Virus record (IMG/VR): IMGVR_UViG_3300044856_000216
Coordinates: 96,001-160,000 of that record
Source: a virus
Length of the DNA: 64,000 nt
Direction: 5' to 3' (one strand)
Shown: positions 18,118 through 35,506 of the stretch, in pieces
Numbering within the stretch: position 1 is the stretch's first letter
Layout of the letters: each line of letters opens with the position of its first letter
The notes under the pieces: model-generated
Seen by the model: only the letters and a program-made list of their open reading frames with translations
Told to the model about the DNA's origin: nothing
Databases searched by the model: none
Position numbers and translations under genes: made by a program

Positions 18118-19119
18118 ATTGGGGTATATTCTATAACAAATTTGAAAACTAAAAAATTATATATTGGAGAAAGTCTTGATATTGATAAAAGATGGATTAA
18201 TCATAAAAATGATCTTTTAAATAACCAACACGCTAATTATTATCTTCAACAAGATTTTAATAAGTTTGGGAAGGCATTTTTTAAATTTGAAGTTCTGCAA
18301 GAAGTTGAAAGAGATAGTATCACTATTACTCAATCCAAATTATTGATGTTAGAAAATGCTTATATAGAAAAATATAAAAATGAAGATTATGAATTATATA
18401 ACATAGAAAATACACTAGAAGATGTTCTTTCAAATAAAAGGAAATTATTGGTTTGCGAAGAAATTGCAAATTATGTTGTAGTGTCTCAATTTTTAAAAAA
18501 TAAATATGTATATGATTATACAAATAAAAGATTTAATTATTGTCAAAGAGATACAATTGAAAATTTAATATTATCTAATTCTTCCATCAAAGGGAAAGAA
18601 AAAGCAAAGCAAGTTGCAAACATAATATTAAAAGAGTTAATTGATCAGAATCTATATGAAAACTTTATAATAGAAAACACTTACTCTATTTATCTATATC
18701 ATAAAATTCAAGAACGTAAAATTATAGAAATTAATTCTAAAGGTCGAGAATATATATTAAGTCATTATGACTTTAATTCGTTTTTATTAAGAAAAAGAAC
18801 TTCTGAAGCCAAATTTTATATACAACAATATCCCTCTGAAAAGAAAATTAAACCAGAAGATCAAAATAGAATACAAGATGTTTGGCATAAACTTAAAGAT
18901 AAATGCATTCTACCACCAGAAAATAAATACAATGATTTTCGAGATATGCTTATAAAATTAAATTTAATTATTATTGATAATAATAAGAGAACACGAGCAA
19001 CTGAATTTGCAATGAAAAATAAATATTTTTTAGTTGTTAAATATAATAAAGCTAAAGATATTTATCAATATGTTATATCTCAAGATGGTTTAAGGTATAT
19101 TTTAGCAAATATAAAATAA
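18118..19119 (+). CDS. GIY-YIG homing endonuclease (I-TevI-like), non-canonical AUU/AUA start
   Basis: (I)GVYSITNLKTKKLYIGESLDIDKRWINHKNDL...YELYNIENT aligns with the I-TevI N-terminus. The GIY motif (18121-) lies upstream of the first canonical start (TTG 18142). The only in-frame candidates after the stop at 18094 are ATT/ATT/ATA/ATT at 18109-18120. Start position is +/-9 nt. Confidence 0.8.
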   Translation: MGVYSITNLKTKKLYIGESLDIDKRWINHKNDLLNNQHANYYLQQDFNKFGKAFFKFEVLQEVERDSITITQSKLLMLENAYIEKYKNEDYELYNIENTLEDVLSNKRKLLVCEEIANYVVVSQFLKNKYVYDYTNKRFNYCQRDTIENLILSNSSIKGKEKAKQVANIILKELIDQNLYENFIIENTYSIYLYHKIQERKIIEINSKGREYILSHYDFNSFLLRKRTSEAKFYIQQYPSEKKIKPEDQNRIQDVWHKLKDKCILPPENKYNDFRDMLIKLNLIIIDNNKRTRATEFAMKNKYFLVVKYNKAKDIYQYVISQDGLRYILANIK

Positions 19120-20908: not shown

Positions 20909-21262
20909 ATGCTGAGAAATTATTATCAAGGAACAATGATTACAGTTGAGTTACCAAAGAATCAATATAAAGGTTATGTGGTTGATTGCGTATACAGATA
21001 TGTCAAGGATATGAATAAGTACGCATTGAGCATGTGGCTTCGTAATACTGAAGTTGACGACAGAATGCAGATTTGCTCACAGGAAATTAATACTCAATAC
21101 ATTACAAGCACAAGAGAGAATATAAAGAAAGATGTGTGTGCAATCGTTGAGCAAGCTGCCAATAGTTCATATTTTGACAAGTCGATTGAGACTTATGAGT
21201 ATACACAGAAATGTTTTGAGCGTGGCAATGCTGAATTTGAGAATGAGGAGAACAGACCATGA
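20909..21262 (+). CDS. hypothetical protein
   Basis: GAAGGA SD. ORF track. Confidence 0.65.
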   Translation: MLRNYYQGTMITVELPKNQYKGYVVDCVYRYVKDMNKYALSMWLRNTEVDDRMQICSQEINTQYITSTRENIKKDVCAIVEQAANSSYFDKSIETYEYTQKCFERGNAEFENEENRP

Positions 21263-21489
21263 GCTGTCCATATTGTAGAGGAATAGGTGAACATGATTAC
21301 AGATGTCCTCTTTGGCAGCCAAGTAAAAAGGCAAAAGTTAAATGTGGTTATTGTGATGAGTATATTCTTGAAGGTGACGATTACGTTGAGATTAATGGAT
21401 GGGCTTATCACAAAGACTGCTTAACTGTTAATAGGTTGCTTGATTTAATGGGAGTTATTACAAAGGAGATGTCGTATGAGTTGGATTAA
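21259..21489 (+). CDS. zinc-ribbon small protein
   Basis: CPYC...CGYC. ATGA overlap with the previous gene. Confidence 0.6.
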   Translation: MSCPYCRGIGEHDYRCPLWQPSKKAKVKCGYCDEYILEGDDYVEINGWAYHKDCLTVNRLLDLMGVITKEMSYELD

Positions 21490-21651: not shown

Positions 21652-23079
21652 ATGGTCAATTATGAACCAGAGTTAATGTACGCATTGGATTCTAAAGGTG
21701 AATATGCTGATTGGAAGAATGTTTACAATGTAAGTGGCAGTGACGTACTTTATTGTCCTATTTGTTTAGGAAGAGTCAAACTTTGGAATGGACAAGATCC
21801 AAATAAGACCTATCAAAAACAAAGATGTTTTCATCATATTGATGGAATGTGTTCACAAGAAAGTAGAATCCATTTTGCTTATAAAACATGGTTACTTAAG
21901 CAAGGAAGCAAATTTAAAGTAGGTGAAACTATATATGAAGTTACTAATTCAGAAATCGAAAAAACGTTTCATACTAAATTTGGTGGCTATCGCCCTGATA
22001 TTACTGTAGAAACTACAGAAGGAAAAAGCTTTTATATTGAAATAGCAGATACAAATAAGAAAACCAATGATTATATCGAAAAATGGGATGAGCTTGGATG
22101 TGATGTTTTGGAATTAGATGTAAATGAACAGCTAATAAAAGCTACAATCGCAGGAATTCCAGAATTTAACATCATCTACTCTTCTTCTACTGGCGAATGT
22201 TATATTAAACATTATACGAGACAAGATTATGATGATTTAATCACAGAAAGAAAAATTTATTGGAAACGAAAGGGTCTTATCAAATATAAAATCCAATGGG
22301 AACGATTAGATTGGTTTTGGAAAAAACTCCAAGATTTTTATTCTGGAAATTCTAAAATTAATGTTTTAATTGATGCATTTAGGCAAATGGATTCTGAAGA
22401 CCAACGTTTTATATGTAAAAGGATGCGAGGAAAACACTCATCATTAAAATATGAATTAGAGAATAATTATACTGATAAAAAAGATATTGAAAAAGCTCAT
22501 TTACAACATATTAGTACCACTATTAAAAAGCTTAACCAGGAATTTGGCTATAGTAGTTCTAATCCTTTAGATAGTACATATTTATTTAGAAAAGATAAAC
22601 ATGTTATTTTTAAAGACAGTCCAATATGGGAAAACCGTTCTTATTTATATATTTATAATTATATTACTGAAGAAGATGTTTATAACTATTTTCATCCAAT
22701 TATGGAAGAATATTACAAGGAGCACACAATTCCATTATTAGAGAGTATCCAAAAAAAGAAAATATGCTTTGAAGAAAATGAAAACTATATAAATAACTAT
22801 TTTATTCCTAAATTCAAAAAAATACAAAAACAAATTAATAGATGTTCTAACACTTGTTGGTATGTTAAAAGTTCTGTTACTGTTTATGGATATACTCATG
22901 AATTTAAAATAATTATTAAATTTTTAAATTGTTTTGAGGAACATATATATTTGAATTTTAATGAAAAATCTCAGAATAATATTGATATTAAAAATCTTAT
23001 ATCTTCTAAAATGAATAATATGATTGCTAAAGCAAAAGAAGGATTAAATAGTAATATTAGAATTATGGAGGAACGTTAG
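21652..23079 (+). CDS. CoiA-like (PD-(D/E)xK nuclease-fold) N-terminal domain protein, 475 aa
   Basis: LYCPICLGRV...CFHHIDGMCSQESRIHFAYKTWLL...GGYRPDITVETTEGKSFYIEIADTNKKT...LGCDVLELDV follows the CoiA family pattern. The C-terminal 300 aa are unassigned. Confidence 0.65.
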   Translation: MVNYEPELMYALDSKGEYADWKNVYNVSGSDVLYCPICLGRVKLWNGQDPNKTYQKQRCFHHIDGMCSQESRIHFAYKTWLLKQGSKFKVGETIYEVTNSEIEKTFHTKFGGYRPDITVETTEGKSFYIEIADTNKKTNDYIEKWDELGCDVLELDVNEQLIKATIAGIPEFNIIYSSSTGECYIKHYTRQDYDDLITERKIYWKRKGLIKYKIQWERLDWFWKKLQDFYSGNSKINVLIDAFRQMDSEDQRFICKRMRGKHSSLKYELENNYTDKKDIEKAHLQHISTTIKKLNQEFGYSSSNPLDSTYLFRKDKHVIFKDSPIWENRSYLYIYNYITEEDVYNYFHPIMEEYYKEHTIPLLESIQKKKICFEENENYINNYFIPKFKKIQKQINRCSNTCWYVKSSVTVYGYTHEFKIIIKFLNCFEEHIYLNFNEKSQNNIDIKNLISSKMNNMIAKAKEGLNSNIRIMEER

Positions 23080-23080
23080 T

Positions 23081-25948
23081 ATGACAAACAATAACGGAGT
23101 TTACATACCATCTATTGATGCAAAGGATATTTATTTATCAGCACATTACATTGAGGAAAATCCAGAAGGATATAATTTAAAGCTTAAAGATGGACAATAT
23201 AATTTACGAAAATTTATTAACACACTTGATTATAGCTTGGATCTTATAGAACTAAAAGATATTTATTATAGAAAATTCAGGAAACATGATTTTTCATTTA
23301 GAATTAAAAAACACGATTATTCTGTAAATGTAATTAATCTCACATTTAAGTATTCTGTAAAAGAATGGAATCAGATGAACAAAAATACTTTTGTCAGACT
23401 TGGATACGATTATAGGAATCTCTCTTTCGAAGATGGTATTGCTAAAAATAGTGAAGGTGAAATTGTCGGAATTAAGACGAATGAAAAAATTGAAAACCCA
23501 ATTGATATACCAAAGCCATTTGTTAAAAAGCAGGTAAATATCTATGATAAAAAGGATAAAACTGTTATTAAAGAGATTCAAAAGCAGTACCATAAAAAAG
23601 GCGAACCTAAGACTATAAAGACAAATGCAGAACTTAGAACTGAGTTGTATAAAGATGGATTTATCTGCAATGGTACTAAATATTGTCGAATGAAACGCTC
23701 TACTGGTTCAGCAAGAGTTGGTAAATGTCTCTTTATCAGAGAAGATTTATATGAACCAATTTTAAAATTCAGTTCAGGCGGTCTTAAATACAGCCAAGGA
23801 GATCCGATTGATTTAGCTGCATATGAGGGATATATTGCTCTCCCATCTAGTAGCATTATTGATACCATTCCAATTAAACCAGAAAATATTCTTTTAATTG
23901 ATGATTATGACAGCGTGTTTAATGAGGACGTAATCGAGACTCATGATGAAGATGGATGGCTTAAAACTACTGAAAAGAATTGTGAAATTACAAATACAAT
24001 TTGGGATGGTCAGTCTCTTATGGATATATCTCTATTTGGTGATTATTCAGAATATGGTATGCTTCTACTTAGAAATCTAATGTTCAAGTCTTGTTGTTTC
24101 AACTGTAATATCCAACAATGGTTTAAAGATAATAATATAACAGATGTGTCTCAGCTTAATGGTAAAACAAGAGCTACACGCATTGAAGATGTAAAGTTAA
24201 TTACCACACCTAACAGTATTAAATATTTGAAATTTAGTACATGGGATGAATGGCTTGACCACTTATATCCTGATTTTGGTGTTGTAAAGCATGATAAGAA
24301 AACTCACTTCTTTGGCGGTCGTTTGGTACAGACTCATTATCAGTTGCTCAATACCCTTCAGATGTCAAAAGATGAAGTAAGAGAATTCTTGCAAGAATCA
24401 TTTGACTTCGCACAAATGCTTAGAGATAGACCAGAAGTTGTACGCTATTACATTAAATATCCTGATATTGATGAAATGTCACCTATGGATAAACCTATGA
24501 GTAGCAAGAATGATGTGGTTTATAATTTAATGTGTGTAAATGATAATTTTACCAAGACAAAATATTATCAAGACTTTTTACATGATTTATTGGCATCATA
24601 TTACAAGAATCTTAAAAATGGACATATTTATGTAAATGGCAATTATTCTACTCTTCTTGGTAATCCAATAGAGATGCTACAGCAATCAATCGGTAAGTTT
24701 GAAGGAAAAAGTCAAATTGGAATTGGTAATATACATAGTACACGCTTTGAATATAATAAAACTCTTCTTGCCAGTCGTTCACCTCATGTTACAATTGGAA
24801 ACATTTGGCTTCCATATAATACAGAGAATAAATTGATAGATTGCTATCTCAATCTTACAAATGAAATTGTGTGTATTAATTCCATTGGAGAAAATGTATT
24901 ACAGAGACTATCGGGTGCTGATTTTGACAGTGATACAGTAATGTTGACAGATAATGAAAAACTCATTCGTGCAGCAAAAAGAAACTATCAGTTGTTTAAA
25001 ACACCAACTGCGAATGTTGATTCTACGAAGAAAAAAAGATATTATACACCAGAACAGCAAGCAGATCTTGACATCAAAACATCTGTAAATAAAATCGGTG
25101 AGATTGTTAATCTATCTCAGGAATTAAATTCTTTACTTTGGGATAAGATGTATCATGGTGCTACTTATAATGATATTAGGGAGTTATATTATGATATATG
25201 TCAATTAGATGTAATGTCTGGAATTGAAATTGATAAGGCAAAGAAAGAATTTATTATCAACAACGGTAAAGAGTTAGATAAACTACGTGAAAAGTATGAT
25301 GAACTTTTGCGTGAGTATGAAGAGAATGAAGAAGGCGAATTAGTAAGAGGCAAAAAGCGTATGCCACACTTCTTTTCTCATATTTCTAAGCAAAAGGGAT
25401 ATTATAATCCTGATAAAAAACATTATTGTAAATGTCACACTTCAATGGACTATTTACAGACTATTATTAATGGATTCAAAATTAAGAATCCATATAAGAA
25501 GGATTGGCTTCCATTTGTATCTATATTAGACAACTCTTTATTTAGGACATCTAGCATAAATCAAAAACAGATAAATCGAATTTATAGTATTTTAAAGAAA
25601 TACATAAATGAAAGGAAAAATATATTTGCCATTGATTCTGACTCAAAAGAAGAACGAAATGATAAAGCAAATAAGCTTAAAGTTGATTTAATTGCAGATA
25701 TTGAATCAGAAACAATTGGTTTTTCAACATTATATCGTTTACTTTCTTCTCTTGAAGATAAAGAAAATTCTCAAATCAAAAATCTTTTATTAGAAGTTTT
25801 GTATCTTTGTGGTAATGATAGTTTTAATAAAGCTGTTATCCAATCTAAAAATGAAATTCTCCAATTAGAAGATAATGGATCTGACATTAAATTATTTAAT
25901 ATTGGGTTTAAAATTACAAAAAAACAAGTAAATTCGGAAATCGAGTAA
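23081..25948 (+). CDS. YonO-like single-subunit two-barrel (DPBB) DNA-dependent RNA polymerase
   Basis: SRSPHVTIGN (nt 24773-24802) lies ~40 aa upstream of GADFDSD (nt 24914-24934). This is the same arrangement as NRAPTLHRLG...NADFDGD of RNAP beta-prime and of YonO/RdRP-type enzymes. 955 aa. An HU-like gene lies downstream, as with yonN/yonO in SPbeta. Confidence 0.75.
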   Translation: MTNNNGVYIPSIDAKDIYLSAHYIEENPEGYNLKLKDGQYNLRKFINTLDYSLDLIELKDIYYRKFRKHDFSFRIKKHDYSVNVINLTFKYSVKEWNQMNKNTFVRLGYDYRNLSFEDGIAKNSEGEIVGIKTNEKIENPIDIPKPFVKKQVNIYDKKDKTVIKEIQKQYHKKGEPKTIKTNAELRTELYKDGFICNGTKYCRMKRSTGSARVGKCLFIREDLYEPILKFSSGGLKYSQGDPIDLAAYEGYIALPSSSIIDTIPIKPENILLIDDYDSVFNEDVIETHDEDGWLKTTEKNCEITNTIWDGQSLMDISLFGDYSEYGMLLLRNLMFKSCCFNCNIQQWFKDNNITDVSQLNGKTRATRIEDVKLITTPNSIKYLKFSTWDEWLDHLYPDFGVVKHDKKTHFFGGRLVQTHYQLLNTLQMSKDEVREFLQESFDFAQMLRDRPEVVRYYIKYPDIDEMSPMDKPMSSKNDVVYNLMCVNDNFTKTKYYQDFLHDLLASYYKNLKNGHIYVNGNYSTLLGNPIEMLQQSIGKFEGKSQIGIGNIHSTRFEYNKTLLASRSPHVTIGNIWLPYNTENKLIDCYLNLTNEIVCINSIGENVLQRLSGADFDSDTVMLTDNEKLIRAAKRNYQLFKTPTANVDSTKKKRYYTPEQQADLDIKTSVNKIGEIVNLSQELNSLLWDKMYHGATYNDIRELYYDICQLDVMSGIEIDKAKKEFIINNGKELDKLREKYDELLREYEENEEGELVRGKKRMPHFFSHISKQKGYYNPDKKHYCKCHTSMDYLQTIINGFKIKNPYKKDWLPFVSILDNSLFRTSSINQKQINRIYSILKKYINERKNIFAIDSDSKEERNDKANKLKVDLIADIESETIGFSTLYRLLSSLEDKENSQIKNLLLEVLYLCGNDSFNKAVIQSKNEILQLEDNGSDIKLFNIGFKITKKQVNSEIE

Positions 25949-26066
25949 GTCTCAGATAACGAATTTCGTGACCAAATTTATTTTACATAGGAGAGGGTAG
26001 TTTTCTGCTTATTATTTTTTTATGATTACTACCCTACTTCATTGTATTTCAAAGGAGTGATTTACA

Positions 26067-26390
26067 ATACAACAAGAAAAAAAATATTACAATCAACGAT
26101 TTATAATAAATCAAATTCAAAATGATACTGGCTGCTCTGAAAGAGATATTGGAAGAATATTATCGTCTTTGCGAGATTTGGTAAAGGATAAACTTAGTGA
26201 TAGTGAAGATAGTGAATTAAAAATATTCCCTGGACTAAAAGTAACTTCAAGATATATACCAACTGAGCAGTCTAATCTTAATTTCTGTAATAATGGAACA
26301 ATCAATTCTGATTTTCTATTATATCTTGATGGCGAATTCAGCCATAGATTCAAAGAAGAAATAAAACAATTACATAAAGTAAAACAATGA
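26067..26390 (+). CDS. HU/IHF-fold DNA-binding protein, apparent AUA start
   Basis: ...FIINQIQNDTGCSERDIGRILSSLRDLVKDKLSDSEDSELKIFPGLKVTSRY... fits HU helix1-helix2-beta arms. Helix 1 lies upstream of the first canonical start (TTG 26169). In-frame stop at 26058. AAAGGAG-9 nt-ATA at 26067. Confidence 0.6.
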   Translation: MQQEKKYYNQRFIINQIQNDTGCSERDIGRILSSLRDLVKDKLSDSEDSELKIFPGLKVTSRYIPTEQSNLNFCNNGTINSDFLLYLDGEFSHRFKEEIKQLHKVKQ

Positions 26391-26414
26391 AATCAGCTTT
26401 TCTTGGCTGATAAA

Positions 26415-26432
26415 ACAGAGAATAATAAAATG
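26415..26432 (+). promoter_or_regulatory. ACAGAGAATAA motif copy, ending in ATG-TAA
   Basis: ACAGAGAATAATAAAATGTAA. TTGGCT lies 17 nt upstream of TAAAAT in this copy only. Confidence 0.55.
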
Positions 26433-26532: not shown

Positions 26533-26606
26533 AGCGGAATGACGAGCAATGGAAGCTCACTTGGCTCATAACCAAGAGTATGCAGGTTCGAGTCCTGTTT
26601 CCGCAA
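26533..26606 (+). tRNA. tRNA with CAT anticodon, initiator-like (A1:A72 mismatch)
   Basis: AGCGGAA-TG-(AC)GAGC-AATGGAA-GCTC-A-CTTGG-CTCATAA-CCAAG-AGTAT-GCAGG-TTCGAGT-CCTGT-TTCCGCA-A. Two extra nt precede the D-stem. Confidence 0.75.
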
Positions 26607-27435
26607 CTCTCCTACTTGTAGGCGGCAGGTTTCGTGTCGTTAAATAAACTTAGCAATAAGGATAAAGCAGGAATGTCTTTAGTTTGCATAAGACACTGCG
26701 ACTGCGCATAGTAGTTTGACGGAAAACACAGATAATCTATACCAAACCTAAAATCAGAGGGCTACTGCTAATGATATGGCTTGGTAGGGGTGATGAAAAA
26801 CGCCCTGTATTAACATGGAAACATGGGTATAATTACTGTCTTATTGGTGCGATTTCCGCAAGAAAAAGTGCTGATATTGATTGTTGTAATGTTTCTTAAT
26901 GCGAAAGCAAGGAACAGAACAATAAAGCAAGTCGATAGCAAGACGAACAGAATGGTGATGATTGGGCTGTACTCAAAAGGTACAGATGGTCAAATGTACA
27001 CCTCATCGTTCATATCATGCAAAAACAAATTACAACATACTTTTGAAATAAAAATATAATGCATATTTATATTAAAAGCAAATTAATATTTAAAGAATAA
27101 GCAAAAGTGTGTATGACCGCAAAGAGACAAACAACTTATTCATCTGCAATATGATGACATATAGCACTCGCAAGGTACTATATGAGAAAATACAAGTAGA
27201 CGCAACCGTAAGAGATTTGCACTCTCTGAACCCCGCAAGGGACGATGTATCGAAAGGAAATCTATAATGCTTTGTGGTAAGAGTTTGCCAATTTTCGCAA
27301 AATTGGTGTTGTTGTTACCTACAGTCTAATCGACTGTGTGATAAATTGTGTCCAACCACAATAGATGGTAACGTGTTAGGTCAATATCTCAGCCTAAAGA
27401 AATAAAGTCTCATACTTCGGTATGGGATTTTTTTA
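26607..27435 (+). ncRNA. candidate large structured non-coding RNA (~830 nt; GOLLD/ROOL-like genomic context)
   Basis: No SD-led ORF. Flanked by two tRNAs. Many short helices with GNRA loops and several perfect 6-8 bp hairpins. Ends at a UUCG-loop terminator. Confidence 0.45.
27408..27435 (+). terminator. intrinsic terminator (UUCG tetraloop)
   Basis: TCTCATAC-TTCG-GTATGGGA followed by TTTTTTT. Confidence 0.8.
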
Positions 27436-27439
27436 TTTT

Positions 27440-27514
27440 GAGTGTGTAGCTCAGTTTGGCAGAGCACGTGACTTTTAATCACGGTGTCGATGGGTTCAAA
27501 TCCCTCCACGCTCA
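27440..27514 (+). tRNA. tRNA-Lys (TTT) with an imperfect T-stem
   Basis: GAGTGTG-TA-GCTC-AGTTTGGCA-GAGC-A-CGTGA-CTTTTAA-TCACG-...-ATGGG-TTCAAAT-CCCTC-CACGCTC-A. Two T-stem mismatches. Confidence 0.75.
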
Positions 27515-27550
27515 CTACTATCCTACTTTGTAGGAAATAAATTAAAGGAT

Positions 27551-27721
27551 GTGAAAATTATTTTATTAATTAACAAAACAGAAGCTTTTGCAATGAGGGA
27601 GCTTATTGGGAAAGAGAATGTGAAAAAGACTTATAGTGGTCATGCAAAATACTATCTGGTTGAAGATGACCAGAATTTAAAAGCTTTGAGTGATTATAGA
27701 AAAAGTAAAATCGTTGGATAG
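27551..27721 (+). CDS. 56-aa hypothetical protein
   Basis: Own translation (GTG start): MKIILLINKTEAFAMRELIGKENVKKTYSGHAKYYLVEDDQNLKALSDYRKSKIVG*. The start codon is uncertain. Confidence 0.45.
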   Translation: MKIILLINKTEAFAMRELIGKENVKKTYSGHAKYYLVEDDQNLKALSDYRKSKIVG

Positions 27722-27755
27722 AGACGAAATCTAAAACGAAAGGTGGTCGGAAACC

Positions 27756-29195
27756 ATCGCAAAGAAAAAACATGAAGTAAAAGTAGAAATTATTGGAGGT
27801 AACGCTGAAGGTGTTACTGGTAGTTGTACTCGAATAAAAACTTCTGAACATTGCTATCTTTTTGAGTGTGGAATGATTCAAGGCAATCATACTGTGCTTG
27901 AAAATTATAGAGCCAATATGAAATATATTCAAAAAGTAAGACCACAAGAAGTCGAATTTATTATTGTTGGACATCTTCACGCAGATCATATAGCCATGAT
28001 TCCAACATTATATGCTCGTGGAAAATGTAATGCAAAAATAATTGTACCTAAAGGTTCAACTTCGATTCTAAAAGAAATGTGGCTTGATTCTTCATATATT
28101 AATTGTAGAGATATTGAAGTCATAAATCTTAAAAATGAAAGAAATTATGAGCCGTTTTATACTGAAGATATTGTATATAAAGCACTCGAATTTGTTCAAG
28201 AGATTGATTCTGATAAGATAGTAAATTTATCTGATGAACTTGCTATTAGATATACTGACGCAGGGCATGTTCTTCTATCTAAGCAATGTGAAGTATATAT
28301 AAACGGAGGTTCACATACTAGAAAAATTCTGTTTTCAAGTGATCTCGGTAATATTGCCACACAAGATACAAGAGTTTTTGTTGAAGATTTTAAACCTGTG
28401 TCATCGGCTAATATTGCAATAATGGAATGTACTTATTGCAGCAAGGAAAGACAATGTACTAAAGAAACATATAAAAAAGATATAGAAAAAATCAAATCTG
28501 TTATAGAACAATATTGTGTTGACAATAATGCAAGAGTTCTTATTCCGTCATTTTCACTTGACAGAACTCCATATATCTTATGGATTTTATATTCCTTATT
28601 TGGAAAAGATGCAAATTTCAAAGTACCAATTTTAATTGATAGTCCATTAGCAAATAGATTGTTAGACTGTTACTCTTCTATTCTTGAAGGTGATAAAAAA
28701 GAATTATTCGATGAAATGATGTCATGGAAGAATGTTCAAAGAATTATTCAACCAGAAAACAGTAAGGCAGCTATTGCAGACAAAGGTGCAAAAATCATTC
28801 TTAGTAGTTCAGGAATGTTGACAGCAGGGAGGTCAATTAAGTGGACTCAGAGTATTTTACCAAGAGAATCTGATTGTATCTTATTTATGGGATATTCTGG
28901 TGAAGATACATTAGCATGGAAAATAAAACATGGTAAAGATAACAAAACAATTAATATTAATGGCAAACCTTTTAAGAATAAGGCGCAGATTTACGATTTG
29001 AAGTCATTTTCTAGTCATATGCAGCGACAGGATATGATTAATTATTACAAATCTATAAATTGTGAAAAAATTTATTTAGTTCATGGTGATTCAAATAAAA
29101 TTGAGTTTAAACATGATTTAGAAGATGCAATATCTGATTGTCTTAAAACTACAAAAGTTATTGCTGTTAATAGCGGTACAAAAATCTCATTATAG
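27756..29195 (+). CDS. metallo-beta-lactamase fold / beta-CASP-type nuclease, apparent AUC start
   Basis: HLHADH motif. The N-terminal strand VKVEIIGGNAEGVTGSCTRI... lies upstream of the first ATG (27873). In-frame stop at 27732. AAAGGTGG-9 nt-ATC at 27756. Confidence 0.75.
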   Translation: MAKKKHEVKVEIIGGNAEGVTGSCTRIKTSEHCYLFECGMIQGNHTVLENYRANMKYIQKVRPQEVEFIIVGHLHADHIAMIPTLYARGKCNAKIIVPKGSTSILKEMWLDSSYINCRDIEVINLKNERNYEPFYTEDIVYKALEFVQEIDSDKIVNLSDELAIRYTDAGHVLLSKQCEVYINGGSHTRKILFSSDLGNIATQDTRVFVEDFKPVSSANIAIMECTYCSKERQCTKETYKKDIEKIKSVIEQYCVDNNARVLIPSFSLDRTPYILWILYSLFGKDANFKVPILIDSPLANRLLDCYSSILEGDKKELFDEMMSWKNVQRIIQPENSKAAIADKGAKIILSSSGMLTAGRSIKWTQSILPRESDCILFMGYSGEDTLAWKIKHGKDNKTININGKPFKNKAQIYDLKSFSSHMQRQDMINYYKSINCEKIYLVHGDSNKIEFKHDLEDAISDCLKTTKVIAVNSGTKISL

Positions 29196-29221
29196 AGAAA
29201 TATTACGAAATTGGAGGCTAA

Positions 29222-29860
29222 ATGCCTATGAATAAAGATTATTTACAGTTAGAGTTTGATAATTTAGGAAGTGAAGCAAATTACAAACTTGCAGATCCGA
29301 CTCTTGTTGATTATTATAAGCGATTAAATAATCGTGAAATTCTTATTAATCAGGATATTGATGACGGAATTGTAGAATGGACTCAAGAAATAGTTGAATG
29401 GAATAGAGAAGACAAGGATATAGCGATTGCCGAAAGAAAGCCAATTAAGATTTGGATTAATTCAAATGGTGGTTCTCTTAATGCAATAAACGAGCTTATT
29501 AATATCTGTAATCTTTCTAAGACACCAGTTTATGCTATTGGAATGGGAAAATGTTACTCCGCAGGAGGGCTTTTGCTTATGGGTATTCCAAGGGGTAACA
29601 GATATATTTTGTCATCTACTGAAGCACTTATTCATGATGGCTCTACAGGCAGTTACGGAGACACTGGCAAGGTACTTGATGATTTAGAGAGAACTAAGAA
29701 AATTGAGGAAGATACAAAACAGTTTATTTTAAGTCATACAAAGATTACTGAGAGTGAATATGATAAAAATTATCGTAAAAATTGGTGGTTAGATGCTAAC
29801 GAAATTATTGAAAAAGGCGTGGCTGATCACATTATTACAAATATTGAGGAATTATTTTAA
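29222..29860 (+). CDS. ClpP-family serine protease
   Basis: GKCYSAGGLLLMG (Ser), LIHDG (His), WLDANEIIEKGVADHII (Asp region). Confidence 0.8.
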   Translation: MPMNKDYLQLEFDNLGSEANYKLADPTLVDYYKRLNNREILINQDIDDGIVEWTQEIVEWNREDKDIAIAERKPIKIWINSNGGSLNAINELINICNLSKTPVYAIGMGKCYSAGGLLLMGIPRGNRYILSSTEALIHDGSTGSYGDTGKVLDDLERTKKIEEDTKQFILSHTKITESEYDKNYRKNWWLDANEIIEKGVADHIITNIEELF

Positions 29861-29887
29861 GGAGAGCGCACTGCTCTCCTATTTTAT
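29861..29887 (+). terminator. intrinsic terminator GGAGAGC-n5-GCTCTCC-TATTTTA
   Basis: Read directly from the sequence. The same stem recurs at 56861. Confidence 0.7.
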
Positions 29888-29909
29888 TGGAGAAAAAGGA
29901 GATTGAAAA

Positions 29910-30137
29910 ATGGCAGCTAGTAAATTAAAGTTCACAAGAACAACTACAGACAAATTAACAGTAAAGGCAGGTACACTCTCAGAGGATTGTACTACTATTA
30001 CATACACAGATGAGAATGATATGGAGCAGGAAGTAAAAGTAGCTGATCTGCTTACTTCATTTAAGAATCAGGTAATTGATTTTACTGTTGCATTAAAAAC
30101 AGATGAGGAGCTAGATGTTCCGTCTGATGAAGAGTAA
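29910..30137 (+). CDS. hypothetical protein
   Basis: AAAGGAG SD. ORF track. Confidence 0.6.
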   Translation: MAASKLKFTRTTTDKLTVKAGTLSEDCTTITYTDENDMEQEVKVADLLTSFKNQVIDFTVALKTDEELDVPSDEE

Positions 30138-30145
30138 GAAGGGAT

Positions 30146-31360
30146 GTGATTACCATAACTTCTTATAAAAGATTTGAGGACGAAACAGATGAGGAGCTTA
30201 TATATAGAATCTGTAAAGAAAAAGATAAAATTGGTTCTTGGCAAAATGTAGCAGATGTGATTAATGAACTTACTGGTAATGATTATGGCGAAAGCACCTA
30301 TCGTAAAAAATACCAAGCGTTTAAGAAAATGTTGAATGCTAATCAATCAAAGTTTGTTGATTCTGACGCACAACTAAAAGAGATTGAAGTTCAGAAACGT
30401 GAATTAGAAAAAGAACGTAAGAAACTTCAAAGTGAAAAAATTGAATATAATAGATGGTTACGTGAAGACGCAAGAGATGAAATGATTGTAGAGAAAATTG
30501 AAAATGCTATATCTACTCTACCTCAGCTATCTACACCTACTCGTATTCCGTCAATGCCTGTATTCAATAAAAAATCTTGGATTCTTGCCATCAGCGATTG
30601 TCATTATGGATGTGAATTTGAGATAAAAGATTTTTATGGAAATATTATAAATGAATATTCACCTGAAATCTTTGAAGAAAGAATGACTTGTCTGTTTAAT
30701 CAAGTTATTGATAAAATAGATGAACTTGGAATTGATGAGTTATCAATTGTAGAACTTGGTGATGGTATAGATGGACTTCTCAGAATGTCACAACTTATGA
30801 GATTGAGATATGGTGTGATCGAATCAAGTATTCGTTATGCTGATTATTTAGCTAATTGGCTGAATAAATTAAGTGGTTATGTACGCATAAAATTTCAAAT
30901 GGTTTATGATTCTAATCATAATCAGTTGAGATTATTAGATGGAAAGAAAAATACATTTCCAGATGAGAATGTTAGTAAAATCATGATAGCTCTTATAAAA
31001 GAGAGATTAAGTGGTAATGAAAATATTATTATTCTTGAAAATCCTACTGGTATGACTTATTCTATGATGTCAACATATTGTGTTGTAGGTTTTCACGGAG
31101 AGAAAAAGAATCTGAAAAATAACCTATTAGAGATGTCTCGTACTTATGGAGTCCATATTGATTATACTATTTCTGGACATATTCATCATGACAACCTTAA
31201 AGAGATTGGAATGGATTCTGCTACTCTTTCAGTAGGTTCTGTAATTGGCATAGATCCATATGCTATGAGATTAAATGCAGCCTCAAATGCTTCATGCTCT
31301 ATGTTTGAGTTTAAAGAAGGTATGGGAAGAACTGCGGAATATGTTTTTAAATTGAACTAA
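30146..31360 (+). CDS. calcineurin-like metallophosphoesterase with N-terminal helical domain
   Basis: SDCHYG, LGDGIDG, DSNHNQ, GFHGE and SGHIHH motifs, in canonical order. Confidence 0.8.
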   Translation: MITITSYKRFEDETDEELIYRICKEKDKIGSWQNVADVINELTGNDYGESTYRKKYQAFKKMLNANQSKFVDSDAQLKEIEVQKRELEKERKKLQSEKIEYNRWLREDARDEMIVEKIENAISTLPQLSTPTRIPSMPVFNKKSWILAISDCHYGCEFEIKDFYGNIINEYSPEIFEERMTCLFNQVIDKIDELGIDELSIVELGDGIDGLLRMSQLMRLRYGVIESSIRYADYLANWLNKLSGYVRIKFQMVYDSNHNQLRLLDGKKNTFPDENVSKIMIALIKERLSGNENIIILENPTGMTYSMMSTYCVVGFHGEKKNLKNNLLEMSRTYGVHIDYTISGHIHHDNLKEIGMDSATLSVGSVIGIDPYAMRLNAASNASCSMFEFKEGMGRTAEYVFKLN

Positions 31361-31437
31361 ACAACAATTGTAGTCCACTGTTCGGCTCAGTTTGGAGCAA
31401 TTGTGAAAGCAGATATTCACAGCTACAATTAATATAC

Positions 31438-31493
31438 GACTAATATATTATTCATTTTTGCTTATTTTGGCGTTTTTAGGTAATATATTAGTC
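31438..31493 (+). terminator. 13-bp perfect inverted repeat GACTAATATATTA-n30-TAATATATTAGTC followed by TTTTT
   Basis: Read directly from the sequence. The large loop makes terminator function uncertain. Confidence 0.35.
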
Positions 31494-31645
31494 TTTTTGG
31501 TTAATGAAACCACTATCAGAGGGAGTGTACCTTATATGGACGCTACCCTCTTATTATTTTGGCAATAAATTAAAATATTGCCGAAAAAATATAAATAAAG
31601 CACTCAAAAAAATATAAATGAAGATTAAAAGGAGATTTTTGAACA

Positions 31646-31933
31646 ATGGTAAAAAATGACGTATTAAGAAATGTAGCAGGTAAGTTAGAAGGATGTTCTC
31701 AGAAAGACGTAGAAGCTGTTCTCTCAGCTTATGCAGAGGTTGTAATTGAGACTCTTACAAATGATAAGACAGAGAAAGTTCCTCTGATTGGAATTGGAAA
31801 CTTTACCGCAAAGCATGTAGATGAGAAATCTGGTATTGTTCAGCTTGGTGAAAACAAGGGTTCTACATGGCATAAAGATGCCGAGGATCAGTTAGCATTT
31901 AAGATTTCTAAGTCAGTAAAGACACTTGCATAA
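31646..31933 (+). CDS. HU/IHF-family DNA-binding protein
   Basis: MVKNDVLRNVAGKLEGCSQKDVEAVLSAYAEVVIETL...IGIGNFTAKH... Confidence 0.8.
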   Translation: MVKNDVLRNVAGKLEGCSQKDVEAVLSAYAEVVIETLTNDKTEKVPLIGIGNFTAKHVDEKSGIVQLGENKGSTWHKDAEDQLAFKISKSVKTLA

Positions 31934-31944
31934 TCTGAAAGGTC

Positions 31945-32547
31945 GTGAATTGTTTGAAGAAGAAAAATAAATATGAAGACATTCAGATGGTTGATCTTGA
32001 GGATAAAGTTGATGACATTGTAAAAATTTATATTAACAGACTTTATCATACTGATAAGACTGTTGGTGTAATTGTAAATAAAGAGATTGCTGAATATATT
32101 TTGGATATTCTTATTAGACTTGACGAGACAAGTATTAAAGAGATTGACCTTGTTGATTATATGAATATAGACGAATATTTAGTATCTGTTGATGATGATG
32201 GCGTAATCACCGTTGTTCCTATTGAGGACTTTTGTGTTCTTGATAAAACAGATATTTTCTACATTGATATGGATGGTGATATTAAACAGGATGTCATTGA
32301 TTATTGTGTAAATGAGGATAAGGAAGTTATTCTGTTTGGACAGGAAGATGATTGTGACTGCGATGGTGATTGCGAAAACTGTCCTGCACATGATGAGACT
32401 TATTTACATACTTCTGAAGATGGAAATGCTCACGGATTTACTGCTAGTAGGTCAGATGGCGACTCTTATATGAGTTATTCGTTTTATTCTAGTGATGAGT
32501 TAAGTCATGAAGATATTCAGAAGATGTTAAAGGCTTTTGGATTTTAG
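31945..32547 (+). CDS. acidic hypothetical protein
   Basis: ORF track (GTG); ATG 31987 is an alternative start. D/E/C-rich. Confidence 0.6.
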   Translation: MNCLKKKNKYEDIQMVDLEDKVDDIVKIYINRLYHTDKTVGVIVNKEIAEYILDILIRLDETSIKEIDLVDYMNIDEYLVSVDDDGVITVVPIEDFCVLDKTDIFYIDMDGDIKQDVIDYCVNEDKEVILFGQEDDCDCDGDCENCPAHDETYLHTSEDGNAHGFTASRSDGDSYMSYSFYSSDELSHEDIQKMLKAFGF

Positions 32548-32554
32548 ATTATTT

Positions 32555-32587
32555 AGAGTGTGTGGTGTATGCTACGCACTCTTTTTG
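32555..32587 (+). terminator. intrinsic terminator
   Basis: AGAGTGTG...CGCACTCT followed by TTTT. Confidence 0.65.
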
Positions 32588-32590
32588 TAT

Positions 32591-32674
32591 GGGTGGATAT
32601 GCCTAGAGGCGAGGGCAAGAGACTGTAAATCTCCCACATAAGAAACACCGTAGGTTCGACTCCTACTCCACCCA
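32591..32674 (+). tRNA. tRNA-Tyr (GTA), long variable region
   Basis: GGGTGGA/TCCACCC acceptor, TGCC/GGCA D-stem, CTGTAAA anticodon loop, GTAGG-TTCGACT-CCTAC T-arm. The 15-nt variable region shows no obvious stem. Confidence 0.8.
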
Positions 32675-32865
32675 CTATTGTCAGAAAGAGAAATCTTTCT
32701 TCTATTAAGAACATCCATATAAGGAGCGTATGGCGGTGAGTTGACATCGTTAACAACTTGGGTGAACCTCAAGAGTGGTCAAGAGTGATAAAAACTCTTA
32801 TAAAAGTGTAAGGCTTTTGTATAATGGGCAAGCATTTAAAATCAATTACATAGTAAATAAATTAG

Positions 32866-32904
32866 AGAAGCGATTTAGTCCACTACTATCTCGCTTCTTT
32901 TTGT
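32866..32904 (+). terminator. terminator-like hairpin upstream of int
   Basis: AGAAGCGA...TCGCTTCT followed by TTTT. Confidence 0.5.
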
Positions 32905-32926
32905 ATACGAAAGGAAGTGAGATTTA

Positions 32927-33961
32927 ATGAGTAGAAAAATACAACACAATAATATTGTTACTGATGAGTTATTGACTCAGTGTAATAAAGAGAATATAGA
33001 GTTAGGAAATGATTTTTTGGATTATCTTCGTTCAGTTGATAGATCCCCAAATACAATCAATGCGTATAGACGTGACCTTTACATTTTTTGGGTTTATCTA
33101 CTTCAGCATTGTGACAACAAATTTTTTATTGATTTATCTAAAAGAGACATTGCTCGTTATCAGAGTTTTTGTCTTACTGAATATAAATGGTCGCCAGCTA
33201 GAATGCGTAGAGTAAAATCTACTCTCTCATCGCTTTCAAATTATGTAGAAGCTATATTGGACGATGAGTATGAAAATTTTAAACCAATTATACGCAAAAT
33301 TGAAAATCCTGCAAATGAAAAGGTATTCACTAAAACTGTATTATCTGATGAGCAAGTACAGGGAATGCTTGATTATTGGGTTGAAAAAGGTAAATATGAC
33401 AAGGCTTGTATTTTAGCATTAGCTGCATTTAGTGGCAGACGTAAGAGTGAGTTACCACGATTTAAAGTATCTTATTTCGATGATGAAAATATCATATACG
33501 GTTCTTTATATAAAACACCTGAAAAGATCCAAACAAAAGGAAGAGGATCTCGCGGAAAAATGTTAGTGGCATATACACTTGCAAAACCATTTAAGCCATA
33601 TTTCGATTTGTGGATGAATTATAGAAAAGAACACGGAATTGAATCAGAATGGTTATTTCCCAAAAAAGTAAATGGAGAATATATAGATGAACCTATGGAT
33701 TCAAGTACTCTTGACAGTTGGGCTGATACATTTAGTAAGCATTTAGGAGAAGACTTCTATTTCCACAGTCTTCGTCACTTCTTTACAACTTCTTGTTCTC
33801 GAAGCGGTCTTCCTGATGATGTAATTCAAATGTTAGTCGGTTGGAGTTCGCTAGATATGGTATCAGTGTACAAGGATATTGATGCAGATGAGCAATTTGC
33901 AAAATATTTTGCTGATGGAGAAATAAAACAAGTAGAACAAAAATCACTTTCTGATTTGTAG
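32927..33961 (+). CDS. int: tyrosine recombinase / integrase (XerC/D-like)
   Basis: ...FHSLRHFFTTSCSRSGLPDDVIQMLVGWSSLDMVSVY... (R-H-R-Y catalytic region). N-terminal SAM-like domain pattern. Confidence 0.85.
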   Translation: MSRKIQHNNIVTDELLTQCNKENIELGNDFLDYLRSVDRSPNTINAYRRDLYIFWVYLLQHCDNKFFIDLSKRDIARYQSFCLTEYKWSPARMRRVKSTLSSLSNYVEAILDDEYENFKPIIRKIENPANEKVFTKTVLSDEQVQGMLDYWVEKGKYDKACILALAAFSGRRKSELPRFKVSYFDDENIIYGSLYKTPEKIQTKGRGSRGKMLVAYTLAKPFKPYFDLWMNYRKEHGIESEWLFPKKVNGEYIDEPMDSSTLDSWADTFSKHLGEDFYFHSLRHFFTTSCSRSGLPDDVIQMLVGWSSLDMVSVYKDIDADEQFAKYFADGEIKQVEQKSLSDL

Positions 33962-34276
33962 AAGATGCTGATAAAGCTTTTTGTTTAACACTTCGAATAA
34001 ATACTATACTGTTATCAGTATTTATAGGTATGCTTAATCCTAAGTTATGTAGCGAAAAAAGTGAAAGAAAGCACTTACAAATGAACAAAAATCGTTAGAG
34101 GTTTTTACTAGGGCGGTGCGTGCATTAAACTAGATTTGAGCTTTTGTAAAAAATATCAGATATTTTTTAAAGAAACAACAAGGAAGCATGAATGGATTGT
34201 CTAACTTTCTATTCTAAATAACTGGATGTGTACAGTCCAATATCAGCTAGTTAGTGCTTTATGCTGATTTTCTAAT

Positions 34277-34351
34277 GGATCGTTCGCCTAGTTGGTTATG
34301 GCACTACCCTGTCACGGTAGAATAACATGGGTTCAAGTCCCATACGATTCG
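34277..34351 (+). tRNA. tRNA-Asp (GTC)
   Basis: GGATCGT...CTGTCAC...ATGGG-TTCAAGT-CCCAT-ACGATTC-G; clean cloverleaf. Confidence 0.9.
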
Positions 34352-34355
34352 TTTT

Positions 34356-34426
34356 GGGGCATTAGTCAAAAGGTAAGACAACGGGTTTTCATCCCGTGAG
34401 TATCGGTTCGAGTCCGTTATGCCCTA
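34356..34426 (+). tRNA. tRNA-Glu (TTC)
   Basis: GGGGCAT...ACGGG-TTTTCAT-CCCGT...ATCGG-TTCGAGT-CCGTT-ATGCCCT-A. One T-stem mismatch; short D-arm. Confidence 0.8.
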
Positions 34427-34490
34427 TTATAATTACCATTTAGGAATTTAACCTATATAAATAATTATTATATGTAGAGGAGCACATATT

Positions 34491-35252
34491 ATGGCATTAA
34501 TTGATAAATATACAAATGATGAATTCATAGATTTTGTAAAAAATTCTTTTTCTTATCGAGAATTAGCAAGAAAAATTGGATATAAATCTTATTCTGGTGA
34601 TTTATCTCAAATATTAAAAAATAAAATTTTTGAATTGAATCTTTCTACAAATCATTTTGAAAGAGATAAAACAAAAGATATTACTAGAACTTTTGATAAT
34701 ATTTTTTGTAGTAATTCAACGGCAGATCAGAAAACATTAAGAAAGTGGTATTTTGATGGACATTATACCCCTTATAGTTGTAAAATATGTGGTCAATTAC
34801 CAGTTTGGAATGGAAAGGAATTAGTATTAACTCTTGATCATATAAACGGAAATAATCATGATGACAGATTGGAAAATTTAAGATGGGTATGTCCAAATTG
34901 TGATAGACAGTTAGATACTTTTGGTGGGAAAAATATAAGTAAAAAAAATAATAAGAAATATTGTTTAGATTGTGGAATTGAAATTGGCAAAAAATCTACT
35001 TATTGTAAAAAATGTTCTCCTAAACATCGTAAAAATTTATACGAAGTAAAATTAAAAAAATCTGTGTTATATGAATCAGGTATCACTAGAGATAGATTAA
35101 AAGATTTGGTGCGCCAAAAATCTTTTGTAGATATTGGAAAAATATACGATGTATCAAATACTACAATAAAAGAATGGTGTAAAAAATTTAATTTACCATT
35201 TAGAAAAAAAGAAATTGAATTATATACAGATAACGAATGGGAAAATATATAA
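34491..35252 (+). CDS. HNH homing endonuclease inside the tRNA cluster
   Basis: LDHINGNNHDDRLENLRWVCPNCDRQL HNH core, plus extra Cys pairs. Confidence 0.85.
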   Translation: MALIDKYTNDEFIDFVKNSFSYRELARKIGYKSYSGDLSQILKNKIFELNLSTNHFERDKTKDITRTFDNIFCSNSTADQKTLRKWYFDGHYTPYSCKICGQLPVWNGKELVLTLDHINGNNHDDRLENLRWVCPNCDRQLDTFGGKNISKKNNKKYCLDCGIEIGKKSTYCKKCSPKHRKNLYEVKLKKSVLYESGITRDRLKDLVRQKSFVDIGKIYDVSNTTIKEWCKKFNLPFRKKEIELYTDNEWENI

Positions 35253-35473
35253 TTCAAGAACGAAATGCTGCGTTCAAGTCACGCCAGAGTCATTGTGCGG
35301 TAAACCTGATGTGAAAACCTATTTTTTGGATGCATACGAAATTTAGGTGTGTAAGCTCAACACTTGCTACCGCCCTATCAAATTATCCGTGGGCAACAAC
35401 TACGCAGATTATTTTGATAAAGTCGTAATGAAAATAGTTTCATTTAGTTTAGAGAAAGATAATTTTTTAAGAA

Positions 35474-35506
35474 AAGAGTCATTTCCTTTGGAGATGGCTC
35501 TTTTGT
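35474..35506 (+). terminator. intrinsic terminator
   Basis: AAGAGTCA...TGGCTCTT followed by TTGTT. Confidence 0.55.

Follow-up and report, generated by a model that had tools for sequence, protein, structure and literature searches.

A CoiA-like nuclease gene directly upstream of the gene for a YonO-type single-subunit RNA polymerase in a gut-Firmicutes phage: polymerase-linked but dispensable

In this work we analyse a 64,000-nucleotide (nt) stretch of viral DNA (hereafter called the window), covering positions 96,001 to 160,000 of the virus record IMGVR_UViG_3300044856_000216, and in particular three consecutive genes on its + strand: the gene of a CoiA-like nuclease of 475 amino acids (aa) at 21652-23079, the gene of a YonO-type single-subunit, two-barrel RNA polymerase of 955 aa at 23081-25948, and the gene of a divergent HU-like protein of 107 aa, which together with its Shine-Dalgarno sequence occupies 26051-26390. 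The window has a low G+C content of about 31%, and from about 15.5 kb onward its genes run on one strand. At the junction of the first two genes, which reads ...ATTATGGAGGAACGTTAGTATG, the TAG stop at 23077-23079 is followed by one base and then by the ATG at 23081, with the ribosome-binding site (RBS) of the polymerase gene, GGAGGA (23067-23072), lying inside the last codons (..IMEER) of the upstream gene; the 475-aa gene is translationally coupled to the polymerase gene. Both open reading frames (ORFs) and their coupling had been described in an earlier note on this DNA, made from the letters alone, and they are present as described, as are the motifs quoted there for the two proteins, which are conserved among homologues and do not arise by chance. 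Proteins identical to the 475-aa and 955-aa proteins are found in public metagenome assemblies, on contigs of up to 191,915 bp, under the label 'hypothetical protein'. Among phage records the closest is that of an unannotated 176-kb phage from human faeces, with a polymerase of 80% protein identity, and related proteins have been reported from Lacrimispora, Blautia, Coprobacillus and Konateibacter. This region forms an operon in a gut-Firmicutes phage of about 190 kb. Loci of relatives are denoted below by labels such as L011, with L001 standing for BUCT082, L141 for SPBc2 and L142 for c-st.

The earlier note had placed the 955-aa protein among the double-psi beta-barrel polymerases of YonO type, and four lines of evidence agree on this placement. 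The first is the PHROG families, where phrog_8308 matches the protein end to end (1e-94) and phrog_4291 ('RNA-dependent RNA polymerase') matches residues 601-680 (7.5e-5). The second is the link to YonO: the protein matches the BUCT082 polymerase by BLASTP (1e-17), which in turn matches yonO by BLAST (3e-14), giving a chain from the window through BUCT082 to yonO, and the profile of 36 homologues aligns with SPBc2 YonO by hhalign with a probability of 98.2% and an E value of 6.3e-14 over 414 columns, pairing RSPHVT of the window with RSPHLF of YonO and DFDSD with DNDGD (YonO FDNDGD). The third is the AlphaFold 2 (AF2) model calculated from the 36-homologue alignment, with a predicted local distance difference test score (pLDDT) of 85 and a predicted template modelling score (pTM) of 0.76. 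In the Foldseek search with this model against the PDB the top 21 chains are QDE-1 and plant RDR2 (E 1e-15 to 7e-11), with alignments of 600-880 columns, template modelling (TM) scores of 0.35-0.49 and a whole-chain probability of 1.00; these are the sole significant PDB structure matches, the largest subunits of multi-subunit polymerases coming next with insignificant scores, and no chain of a crAss-like phage polymerase is among the 50 best matches. The fourth is the invariance of R566 and P568 in SRSPHVTIGN (residues 565-574; RSPH motif at nt 24773-24802) and of D614, D616 and D618 in the catalytic GADFDSD (residues 612-618; nt 24914-24934), which holds in each of three alignments (8, 16 and 36 homologues) that reach down to 17% identity. 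In the homologue alignments R331 and K336 of the upstream, beta-like barrel are invariant as well, and we infer that these conserved basic residues have a role in the second barrel. The 955-aa protein has no Pfam match, with the direct Pfam and NCBIfam scans giving nothing useful, and its sequence has no match in the PDB; the Pfam RdRP domain (PF05183) is present in homologues at about 48% identity and in TR-TP1 at 21%. More than 2,900 relatives of the polymerase were scored in one search. Taken together, the four lines of evidence identify the 955-aa protein as a single-chain two-barrel RNA polymerase of YonO type whose Mg-binding DxDxD site is intact. Neither of the outcomes that the earlier note had named as refuting its placement occurred, since the profile and structure searches do put the protein among the double-psi beta-barrel polymerases and the Asp triad is conserved among its homologues.

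With YonO of SPbeta (Forrest et al. 2017, PMC5467207) the protein shares, besides the roughly 414 homologous columns in which RSPH and DxDxD align, the single chain with both barrels, the small DNA-binding protein gene after it and the setting in a large Firmicutes phage. It differs from YonO in belonging to another clade, with about 22% identity over the hhalign alignment and with tblastn of the window protein not reaching SPbeta directly, and in length (955 aa versus 839 aa). The gene order in SPBc2 is yonP (64 aa), yonO, yonN (HU), a 1.7-kb gap, yonK and yonJ, and the order of polymerase and then HU, which the earlier note had taken as its parallel, is thus real in SPbeta. The upstream neighbour differs, being the 475-aa CoiA-like gene in the window and the gene of the 64-aa YonP in SPbeta; a reading of YonP as the small zinc-finger protein corresponding to the upstream genes of the window was rejected, as YonP has no cysteines. 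With the cellular two-barrel RNA-dependent RNA polymerases QDE-1 and RDR2 (5fsw, 2j7n, 7y7r, 7w82, 7eu1), which are the best structure matches and belong to the PF05183 superfamily found in the window's homologues, the identity is 10-14%, and the window polymerase stands in a phage context. By analogy with YonO, the template of the polymerase is expected to be DNA, and its function would be late transcription from phage-specific start sites. The earlier note had recognised no sigma factor in the window; this holds for the 10 further window ORFs that were scanned, none of which is a sigma factor.

The gene following the polymerase gene and ending at 26390 has no canonical start, the mechanically called ORF being a truncated one with TTG at 26169. 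The HU-like frame opens after the TGA at 26058-26060 and starts with ATA at 26067, behind the Shine-Dalgarno sequence AAAGGAG at 26051-26057. An ATA start (ATT once, in L109) located 6-9 nt after a strong Shine-Dalgarno sequence is present in more than 16 distinct relatives (L010, L013, L015, L016 and L090-L124), and in L013 a stop codon lies directly before the ATA. Because of this non-canonical start, automatic ORF callers truncate or miss the gene. The product of 26067-26390 reaches 21.2 bits against Pfam PF00216 (cut-off 22.4), over residues 9-62 only; 25 HU-like homologues aligned to 6 HU proteins by hhalign give an E value of 1.4e-4 and a probability of 53% over residues 9-48, i.e., the N-terminal helices; a hidden Markov model of canonical HU does not detect the gene, and its product has no BLAST similarity to YonN. 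The label 'HU-fold' for this product is therefore kept tentative, and of the claim of the earlier note that an HU gene follows the polymerase, what stands is that a gene is present and co-conserved there, while its similarity to HU is weak and its start is non-canonical, two features in which it also differs from the gene after yonO. The nucleotide block 23090-26404, which contains the polymerase gene and the HU-like gene, is common to relatives as one unit. Moreover, an HU-family gene lies within 3.5 kb on the 3' side of the polymerase gene in 37 of 80 polymerase loci and also follows the polymerase in BUCT082, TR-TP1, PMBT24 and c-st. The polymerase and its small DNA-binding neighbour form a stable core, and taken alone the polymerase and HU parts are ordinary.

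The 475-aa protein contains the motifs CPIC (residues 35-38), FHH (60-62), ESRIH (70-74), RPD (114-116) and EIAD (130-133). Its zinc finger covers approximately residues 33-67 (nt 21748-21852), its PD-(D/E)XK-like core, with E70, H74, K78, E103, D116, E130 and K137, approximately residues 68-155 (nt 21853-22116), and a lineage-specific C-terminal domain approximately residues 226-475 (nt 22327-23076). A profile of 23 CoiA-like homologues yielded a family of 401 clusters at 50% identity, from which 70 representatives were sampled; among these C35, C38, H62, E70, E130 and K137 are invariant, C67, K78 and D116 are kept in 69 of the 70, and H74 and E103 in 68. The AF2 model of the protein (pLDDT 82, pTM 0.46) has an alpha-beta-beta-beta-alpha-beta core, in which E70, H74 and K78 sit on the helix 69-81, D116 starts the strand 117-121 and E130 lies in the strand 126-131. 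CoiA, the competence nuclease of Bacillota and a D-loop resolvase, has been described as a zinc finger followed by an atypical PD-(D/E)XK fold, with Asp on beta-2 and Glu on beta-3, and an uncharacterised C-terminal extension; it is an endonuclease for single strands, cleaving the strand displaced in D-loops (bioRxiv 10.1101/2024.02.06.579203). The 475-aa protein has this three-part architecture, i.e., zinc finger, atypical PD-(D/E)XK core with the same Asp beta-2/Glu beta-3 arrangement, and fast-evolving C-terminal domain. It differs from CoiA in that its family is phage-encoded, with 450-800 aa and a longer and variable C-terminal domain, and in that CoiA is a host gene of the competence regulon, acting in transformation, whereas this family is fixed upstream of a phage polymerase gene.

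The membership of the 475-aa protein in the CoiA family rests on its relatives, not on a direct Pfam match. The Pfam model CoiA_N (PF25164) matches 61 of the 70 representatives (best 2.2e-14, several at 40-48 bits versus a cut-off of 26.3) and gives weak matches in 9 of 23 close relatives of the protein, the Pfam scan of the protein itself giving a sub-threshold zinc-finger match only and its NCBIfam scan nothing of use. CoiA_nuc (PF06054) matches neither the protein nor any of 93 relatives scanned, including the 70 sampled representatives. By hhalign the family aligns with the CoiA_nuc protein of BUCT082 (E 0.002, probability 14%) across the zinc finger, the E/H helix, the RPD and the following Glu; the gene of that protein (UAW07824), which matches CoiA_nuc with 3.7e-30, overlaps the polymerase start by 4 nt. 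Since CoiA_nuc never matched and the connection to it is the alignment with the BUCT082 protein, sequence comparison places the 475-aa family as a CoiA-like sister family rather than as CoiA proper. The N-terminal CoiA pattern noticed earlier is thus borne out at the family level, while a direct match of the protein is missing. Judged from the residues conserved, the intact nuclease active site points to an enzyme rather than to a pure adaptor.

The association of the CoiA-like gene with the polymerase gene was surveyed in the neighbourhoods of both families, the locus search being seeded with the closer alignment because the 70-sequence alignment is too diverse. In the viral loci found from the CoiA-like side, the next ORF downstream is a YonO-like polymerase in 49 of the 49 complete loci; the gap between the two genes is -61 to +10 nt in 49 of 50 loci, the 50th ending at the contig edge. 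The same holds for the complete loci in bacterial genomes (3/3) and for distant representatives of the family with about 21-25% identity (8/8), where the genes abut in 7 of the 8, with gaps of up to about +27 nt, and are about 500 nt apart in L153. Altogether, every one of the 60 readable loci has the family gene immediately 5' of a YonO-like polymerase gene, and the polymerases downstream belong to clades that are only about 20-48% identical to each other. The CoiA-like family is found essentially only at this position, an association far tighter than could be seen in the earlier note and too deep for chance or simple shared ancestry. Among the open-access papers and preprints searched we found none describing such a pairing of a CoiA-like protein with a YonO-type polymerase.

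It is noted that this placement bears on the explanation that the CoiA-like protein is a general nuclease, acting in recombination, repair, degradation of host DNA or anti-defence, that merely shares an expression slot with the polymerase. Such a nuclease would not be predicted to stand 5' of diverse polymerases in 60 of 60 loci, usually in overlapping or abutting frames, and PADLOC assigns neither the CoiA-like proteins nor the polymerase to a defence system. It would fit with CoiA itself being a recombination D-loop nuclease, with the dispensability of the gene discussed below, with the SPbeta-like members of the family that are unlinked to yonO, and with the varied content of the slot upstream of the polymerase in relatives, which can hold a deaminase-like ORF, zinc-finger proteins or DUF2800 nucleases. 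On the whole we regard this explanation as rather improbable.

The gene is nevertheless optional. In L011, compared with L012, L014 and L044, a 1.4-kb insert consisting of the CoiA-like gene sits between a small zinc-finger gene and the polymerase gene, while the flanks are collinear and 82% and 94% identical in nucleotides. The small gene corresponds in the window to that of a Cys-rich, zinc-finger-like protein of 76 aa (21259-21489, + strand), an ORF with weak zinc-finger matches in Pfam and PHROG only, which in relatives without the CoiA-like gene is the direct 5' neighbour of the polymerase gene; in L011, L012 and L043 its homologues have on one side an ORF of 143-147 aa that by eye resembles a dCMP deaminase, and on the other the CoiA-like gene or the polymerase gene. 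The segment ATTATGGAGGAA..TAA..ATG of about 20 nt, which contains the RBS, also precedes the polymerase gene when the upstream gene is unrelated, and in L011 it flanks the CoiA-like gene on both ends. A reading of the conserved C-terminal '..RIMEER' as a functional peptide was rejected: because the same segment occurs with unrelated upstream genes, it is the RBS of the polymerase gene read in the upstream frame. Based on the 60/60 adjacency, on the carriage of the gene by only about 10-20% of polymerase loci and on the clean single-gene indel, the CoiA-like gene encodes an accessory nuclease that is linked to the polymerase yet dispensable, and because most relatives are without the gene, the polymerase does not need the CoiA-like protein.

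An indel that comprises exactly one gene between conserved neighbours, has the RBS segment of about 20 nt at both ends and is patchily present among near-identical backgrounds is also what would be expected of a selfish endonuclease of the homing type, free-standing and with the polymerase locus as its special target, which would cut the empty junction or the polymerase gene of phages lacking it and be copied in by repair through the RBS segment and the flanks, its variable C-terminal domain being the DNA-recognition module. With the T4 Seg and Mob homing endonucleases the family shares the optional single-gene insert, the combination of a nuclease with a variable DNA-binding part and the patchy distribution; it differs from them in belonging to another nuclease family, in being much larger and in its deep tie to one gene type. 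The invariant nuclease site is consistent with homing, and so are the otherwise frequent invasions of polymerase genes of this family by nuclease genes (the HNH gene of L005, the split polymerases) and the search of the 475-aa model against BFVD, which gave one strong unnamed match (1.4e-6) and weak PD-(D/E)XK matches to phage nucleases, the second-best match being annotated 'Homing endonuclease [Bacillus phage Bobb]' (E 2e-3). By contrast, homing cannot bridge an association that holds in 60 of 60 loci, down to about 21% identity within the family and across clades without DNA homology, and that has outlived typical homing-gene cycles; also, 450-800 aa is unusually large for a free-standing homing enzyme, and we know of no homing enzyme of the CoiA family.

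The modular evolution of the family can be read in both directions. The identities of CoiA-like proteins and of their polymerases are correlated overall (Spearman 0.77), with exceptions in which N-terminal domains 62-78% identical stand beside polymerases only 20% identical, which speaks for homing. In L131 the nucleotide similarity to five such loci ends abruptly at about codon 223, the polymerase belongs throughout to the window's clade, and the C-terminal domain has as its reciprocal best match the one other long variant attached to the same polymerase clade; in this mosaic the C-terminal domain goes with the polymerase clade and the N-terminal module comes from elsewhere. The conserved catalytic module joined to hypervariable C-terminal domains at a sharp recombination boundary would again suit homing; however, a chimeric 5' end of the polymerase gene, the trace that co-conversion would leave, was looked for in L131 and none was found. 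The ratio of nonsynonymous to synonymous substitution rates (dN/dS) is 0.07-0.26 in the N-terminal module and 0.21-0.52 in the C-terminal domain. Moreover, in L033 (3658-4989) and L037 (3643-4989) an in-frame deletion has removed the zinc finger and the nuclease and left the C-terminal ORF, giving proteins of 443-448 aa that overlap the polymerase start and have a dN/dS of 0.20 between the contigs. This nuclease-less C-terminal domain is kept under purifying selection, and the conservation of such a derivative at a dN/dS well below 1 sets the family apart from the Seg and Mob enzymes and counts further against homing. We judge a homing origin of the whole pattern to be unlikely, though it is the main alternative and a serious candidate.

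The retention of the C-terminal domain in L033 and L037 could alternatively be taken to mean that the protein is a non-cutting promoter-specificity subunit, a substitute for sigma, with its catalytic residues only binding metal or DNA. The translational coupling and strict adjacency would agree with this, as would the lack of a sigma factor among the ORFs tested and of established promoter factors for YonO. Partners of this kind exist elsewhere: N4 RNAPII works with gp2, and the non-virion polymerases of AR9 and phiKZ have a promoter subunit, these partners being required and not nucleases. By description, the likeness to them is that of a DNA-binding partner, encoded by the phage, that lets a polymerase without sigma factor reach its start sites, sometimes via single-stranded DNA; homology to them is not expected. 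A required factor, however, could not be missing from most polymerase-bearing relatives, and because most relatives are without the CoiA-like gene, a required sigma-like subunit is unlikely; near-total conservation of E70, D116, E130 and K137 is moreover expected of an active enzyme. The explanation by a non-cutting subunit is thus very improbable. For the same reasons, i.e., the absence of the gene from most close relatives and the conserved active site, the description in the earlier note of a compact transcription module with a CoiA-like specificity or processivity factor is not supported in that form, and SPbeta YonO has no CoiA-like neighbour that could be part of such a module.

As the best explanation of the operon we therefore favour, with somewhat less than an even chance of its being right, that the CoiA-like protein is an optional accessory nuclease dedicated to the polymerase. 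It is favoured because the association survives a divergence that homing cannot bridge, because the C-terminal domain is retained where the nuclease has been lost and in L131 has a best match that goes with the polymerase clade, and because the substrate of CoiA, a displaced strand, resembles what a sigma-less polymerase creates or leaves. Several observations weigh against it. When viral loci are collected from the polymerase side, a CoiA-like gene is present in only 8 out of 80 (about 8 out of 42 within the wider clade of the window), and at 90% clustering there are 608 polymerase versus 139 CoiA-like nuclease sequences; phages with 96%-identical polymerases have unrelated upstream DNA without the CoiA-like gene, and tblastn finds no copy of it in the 176-kb relative. 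A 716-aa member of the family in four SPbeta-like phages is not next to yonO, these being the sole exceptions seen to the placement of the family, and no fusion protein of a CoiA-like nuclease and a polymerase was seen. The 475-aa protein itself gives no match to the CoiA Pfam models at E up to 1, and its whole-chain model gives only insignificant coiled-coil and Mediator matches in a Foldseek search against the PDB; with a multi-domain model (pTM 0.46) this search is uninformative. In addition, SPbeta YonO works in vivo with only the unrelated 64-aa YonP upstream (PMC5467207). In the SPbeta-like phages Goe12 and L3, a closeness of the CoiA-like gene to yonO across the genome ends was considered and rejected: attP marks the beginning of the records, with yonO about 52 kb away from it.

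Based on the accessory-nuclease explanation, the following pathway can be proposed. The host polymerase would transcribe the polymerase operon early, and the phage polymerase would then transcribe later genes from phage-specific promoters, for which the intergenic motif ACAGAGAATAA is a candidate. The divergent HU-like protein, which always travels with the polymerase gene, would help to shape the template. By analogy with the cutting of D-loops by CoiA, the CoiA-like protein most likely would bind or nick single-stranded or branched DNA made at or for transcription, which could be the open promoter, the bubble or the R-loop of the sigma-less polymerase. The conserved N-terminal module would do the chemistry while the lineage-specific C-terminal domain would connect it with one particular polymerase or site on the DNA. 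In the paper on YonO, the need for additional phage factors in promoter use is left as an open question (PMC5467207). A more specific form of the same explanation, which has in our estimate a small chance of being correct, is that the protein is a polymerase-coupled nickase or strand-displacement nuclease, where the C-terminal domain docks onto the two-barrel polymerase or onto phage start sites and the CoiA-type module cuts or holds the displaced non-template strand, giving the sigma-less polymerase an entry point or processing R-loops left by it. If this were true, it would amount to nuclease-assisted transcription initiation, or to transcription-primed replication or recombination, undescribed for any polymerase.

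The pairing matters since YonO-type enzymes are minimal relatives of all cellular RNA polymerases, and how a sigma-less enzyme of this type finds its promoters has been a question since 2017. A CoiA-like family of 401 clusters, placed almost exclusively just before such polymerases on thousands of gut-phage contigs, would be either a new polymerase accessory enzyme that joins a D-loop-type nuclease to transcription or a new class of selfish nuclease specialised on polymerase genes. The arrangement is present in one cultivable Bacillus subtilis phage, BUCT082.

The motif ACAGAGAATAA occurs in 8 exact copies in the window, at 1900 (- strand) and at 19316, 20170, 24821, 26415, 36283 and 62184 among those on the + strand; with at most one mismatch there are 15 copies (e.g., a near-copy at 17095) versus 3.25 expected, a number that none of 100 shuffles reaches. 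Seven of the 8 exact copies are intergenic, on the coding strand and upstream of genes, some of them beside a short hairpin, and the motif is also found on the + strand in close relatives. The copy at 26415-26425 (+ strand) lies directly 3' of the HU-like gene, and P_YonO in SPbeta likewise lies directly after the HU gene (PMC5467207). From its enrichment and position, ACAGAGAATAA is a candidate phage promoter element.

Further features of the window lie mainly behind this motif copy. After the polymerase/HU block, between the genes of tRNA-Met (26533-26607) and tRNA-Lys (27440-27515), the full model of the GOLLD RNA (RF02032) matches 26950-27395 (+ strand) with 87.7 bits and E 6e-22, which is below the gathering score of 150; the GOLLD-like RNA probably extends from about 26610, and it has conserved elements such as AAGCAAAAGU, CUCGCAAGG and AUCUCAGCCU. 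GOLLD RNAs are giant, are associated with phages and assemble into cages made of RNA only (PMC12286853). The region behind yonN in SPBc2 and BUCT082 was searched for a GOLLD-like RNA as well, and none is there, the only RNA motif being DUF3800-VIII, located between yonN and yonK (L141 8479-8544 and L001 8632-8697; 47.5 bits versus a gathering score of 40.2). Right after the GOLLD/tRNA cluster comes a gene for a beta-CASP/RMMBL metallo-beta-lactamase, an RNA-processing nuclease of RNase J/CPSF-like type (27873-29195, + strand), and a similar beta-CASP gene follows the polymerase module in the distant relative L154 (11383-12160). The post-polymerase genes are interspersed, over 26533-35586, with six tRNA genes (Met, Lys, Tyr, Asp, Glu, Trp). 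At 31646-31933 (+ strand) lies the gene of a canonical HU-family DNA-binding protein of 95 aa, the second HU of the earlier note, which is clearly confirmed by Pfam PF00216 (Bac_DNA_binding; 38.5 bits versus a cut-off of 22.4, E 1.4e-9, residues 1-92) and by phrog_379 (2e-13). By eye, a 344-aa ORF at 32927-33961 resembles a tyrosine recombinase, and the phage may therefore be temperate. In the early region, a 325-aa ORF at 18142-19119 (+ strand) has a borderline N-terminal GIY-YIG match (22.2 bits versus a cut-off of 22.6) and may be a free-standing homing endonuclease.

Finally, we note some features of the polymerase loci of relatives. In other clades a conserved protein of 240-278 aa overlaps the 3' end of the polymerase gene (L001 6034-6870, L003 7486-8208, L149 5537-6343, L150 5635-6387; pairwise E 1e-5 to 1e-31), and in L154 a 250-aa ORF without BLAST similarity to the others takes the same position; the window's clade is without such an overlapping gene. 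YonO-like polymerase genes are often split or interrupted, as in L005, L007, L065, L068, L077 and c-st: in L005 an HNH endonuclease ORF (4348-4797) directly follows a truncated polymerase ORF, in c-st (L142 4980-8913) the N-terminal half of the polymerase is separated from the C-terminal half by an additional ORF, and Enterocloster phages give two-piece polymerase matches, which suggests that introns, inteins or homing genes target these genes. The most distant polymerase-like proteins, those of L081-L087, have N-termini resembling helix-turn-helix/sigma-70 region 4 and a weak RdRP match only, and a DUF2800-type (PD-(D/E)XK-like) protein of about 185 aa overlaps or abuts their ORF upstream; it represents a second nuclease family at this position, unrelated to the CoiA-like one.

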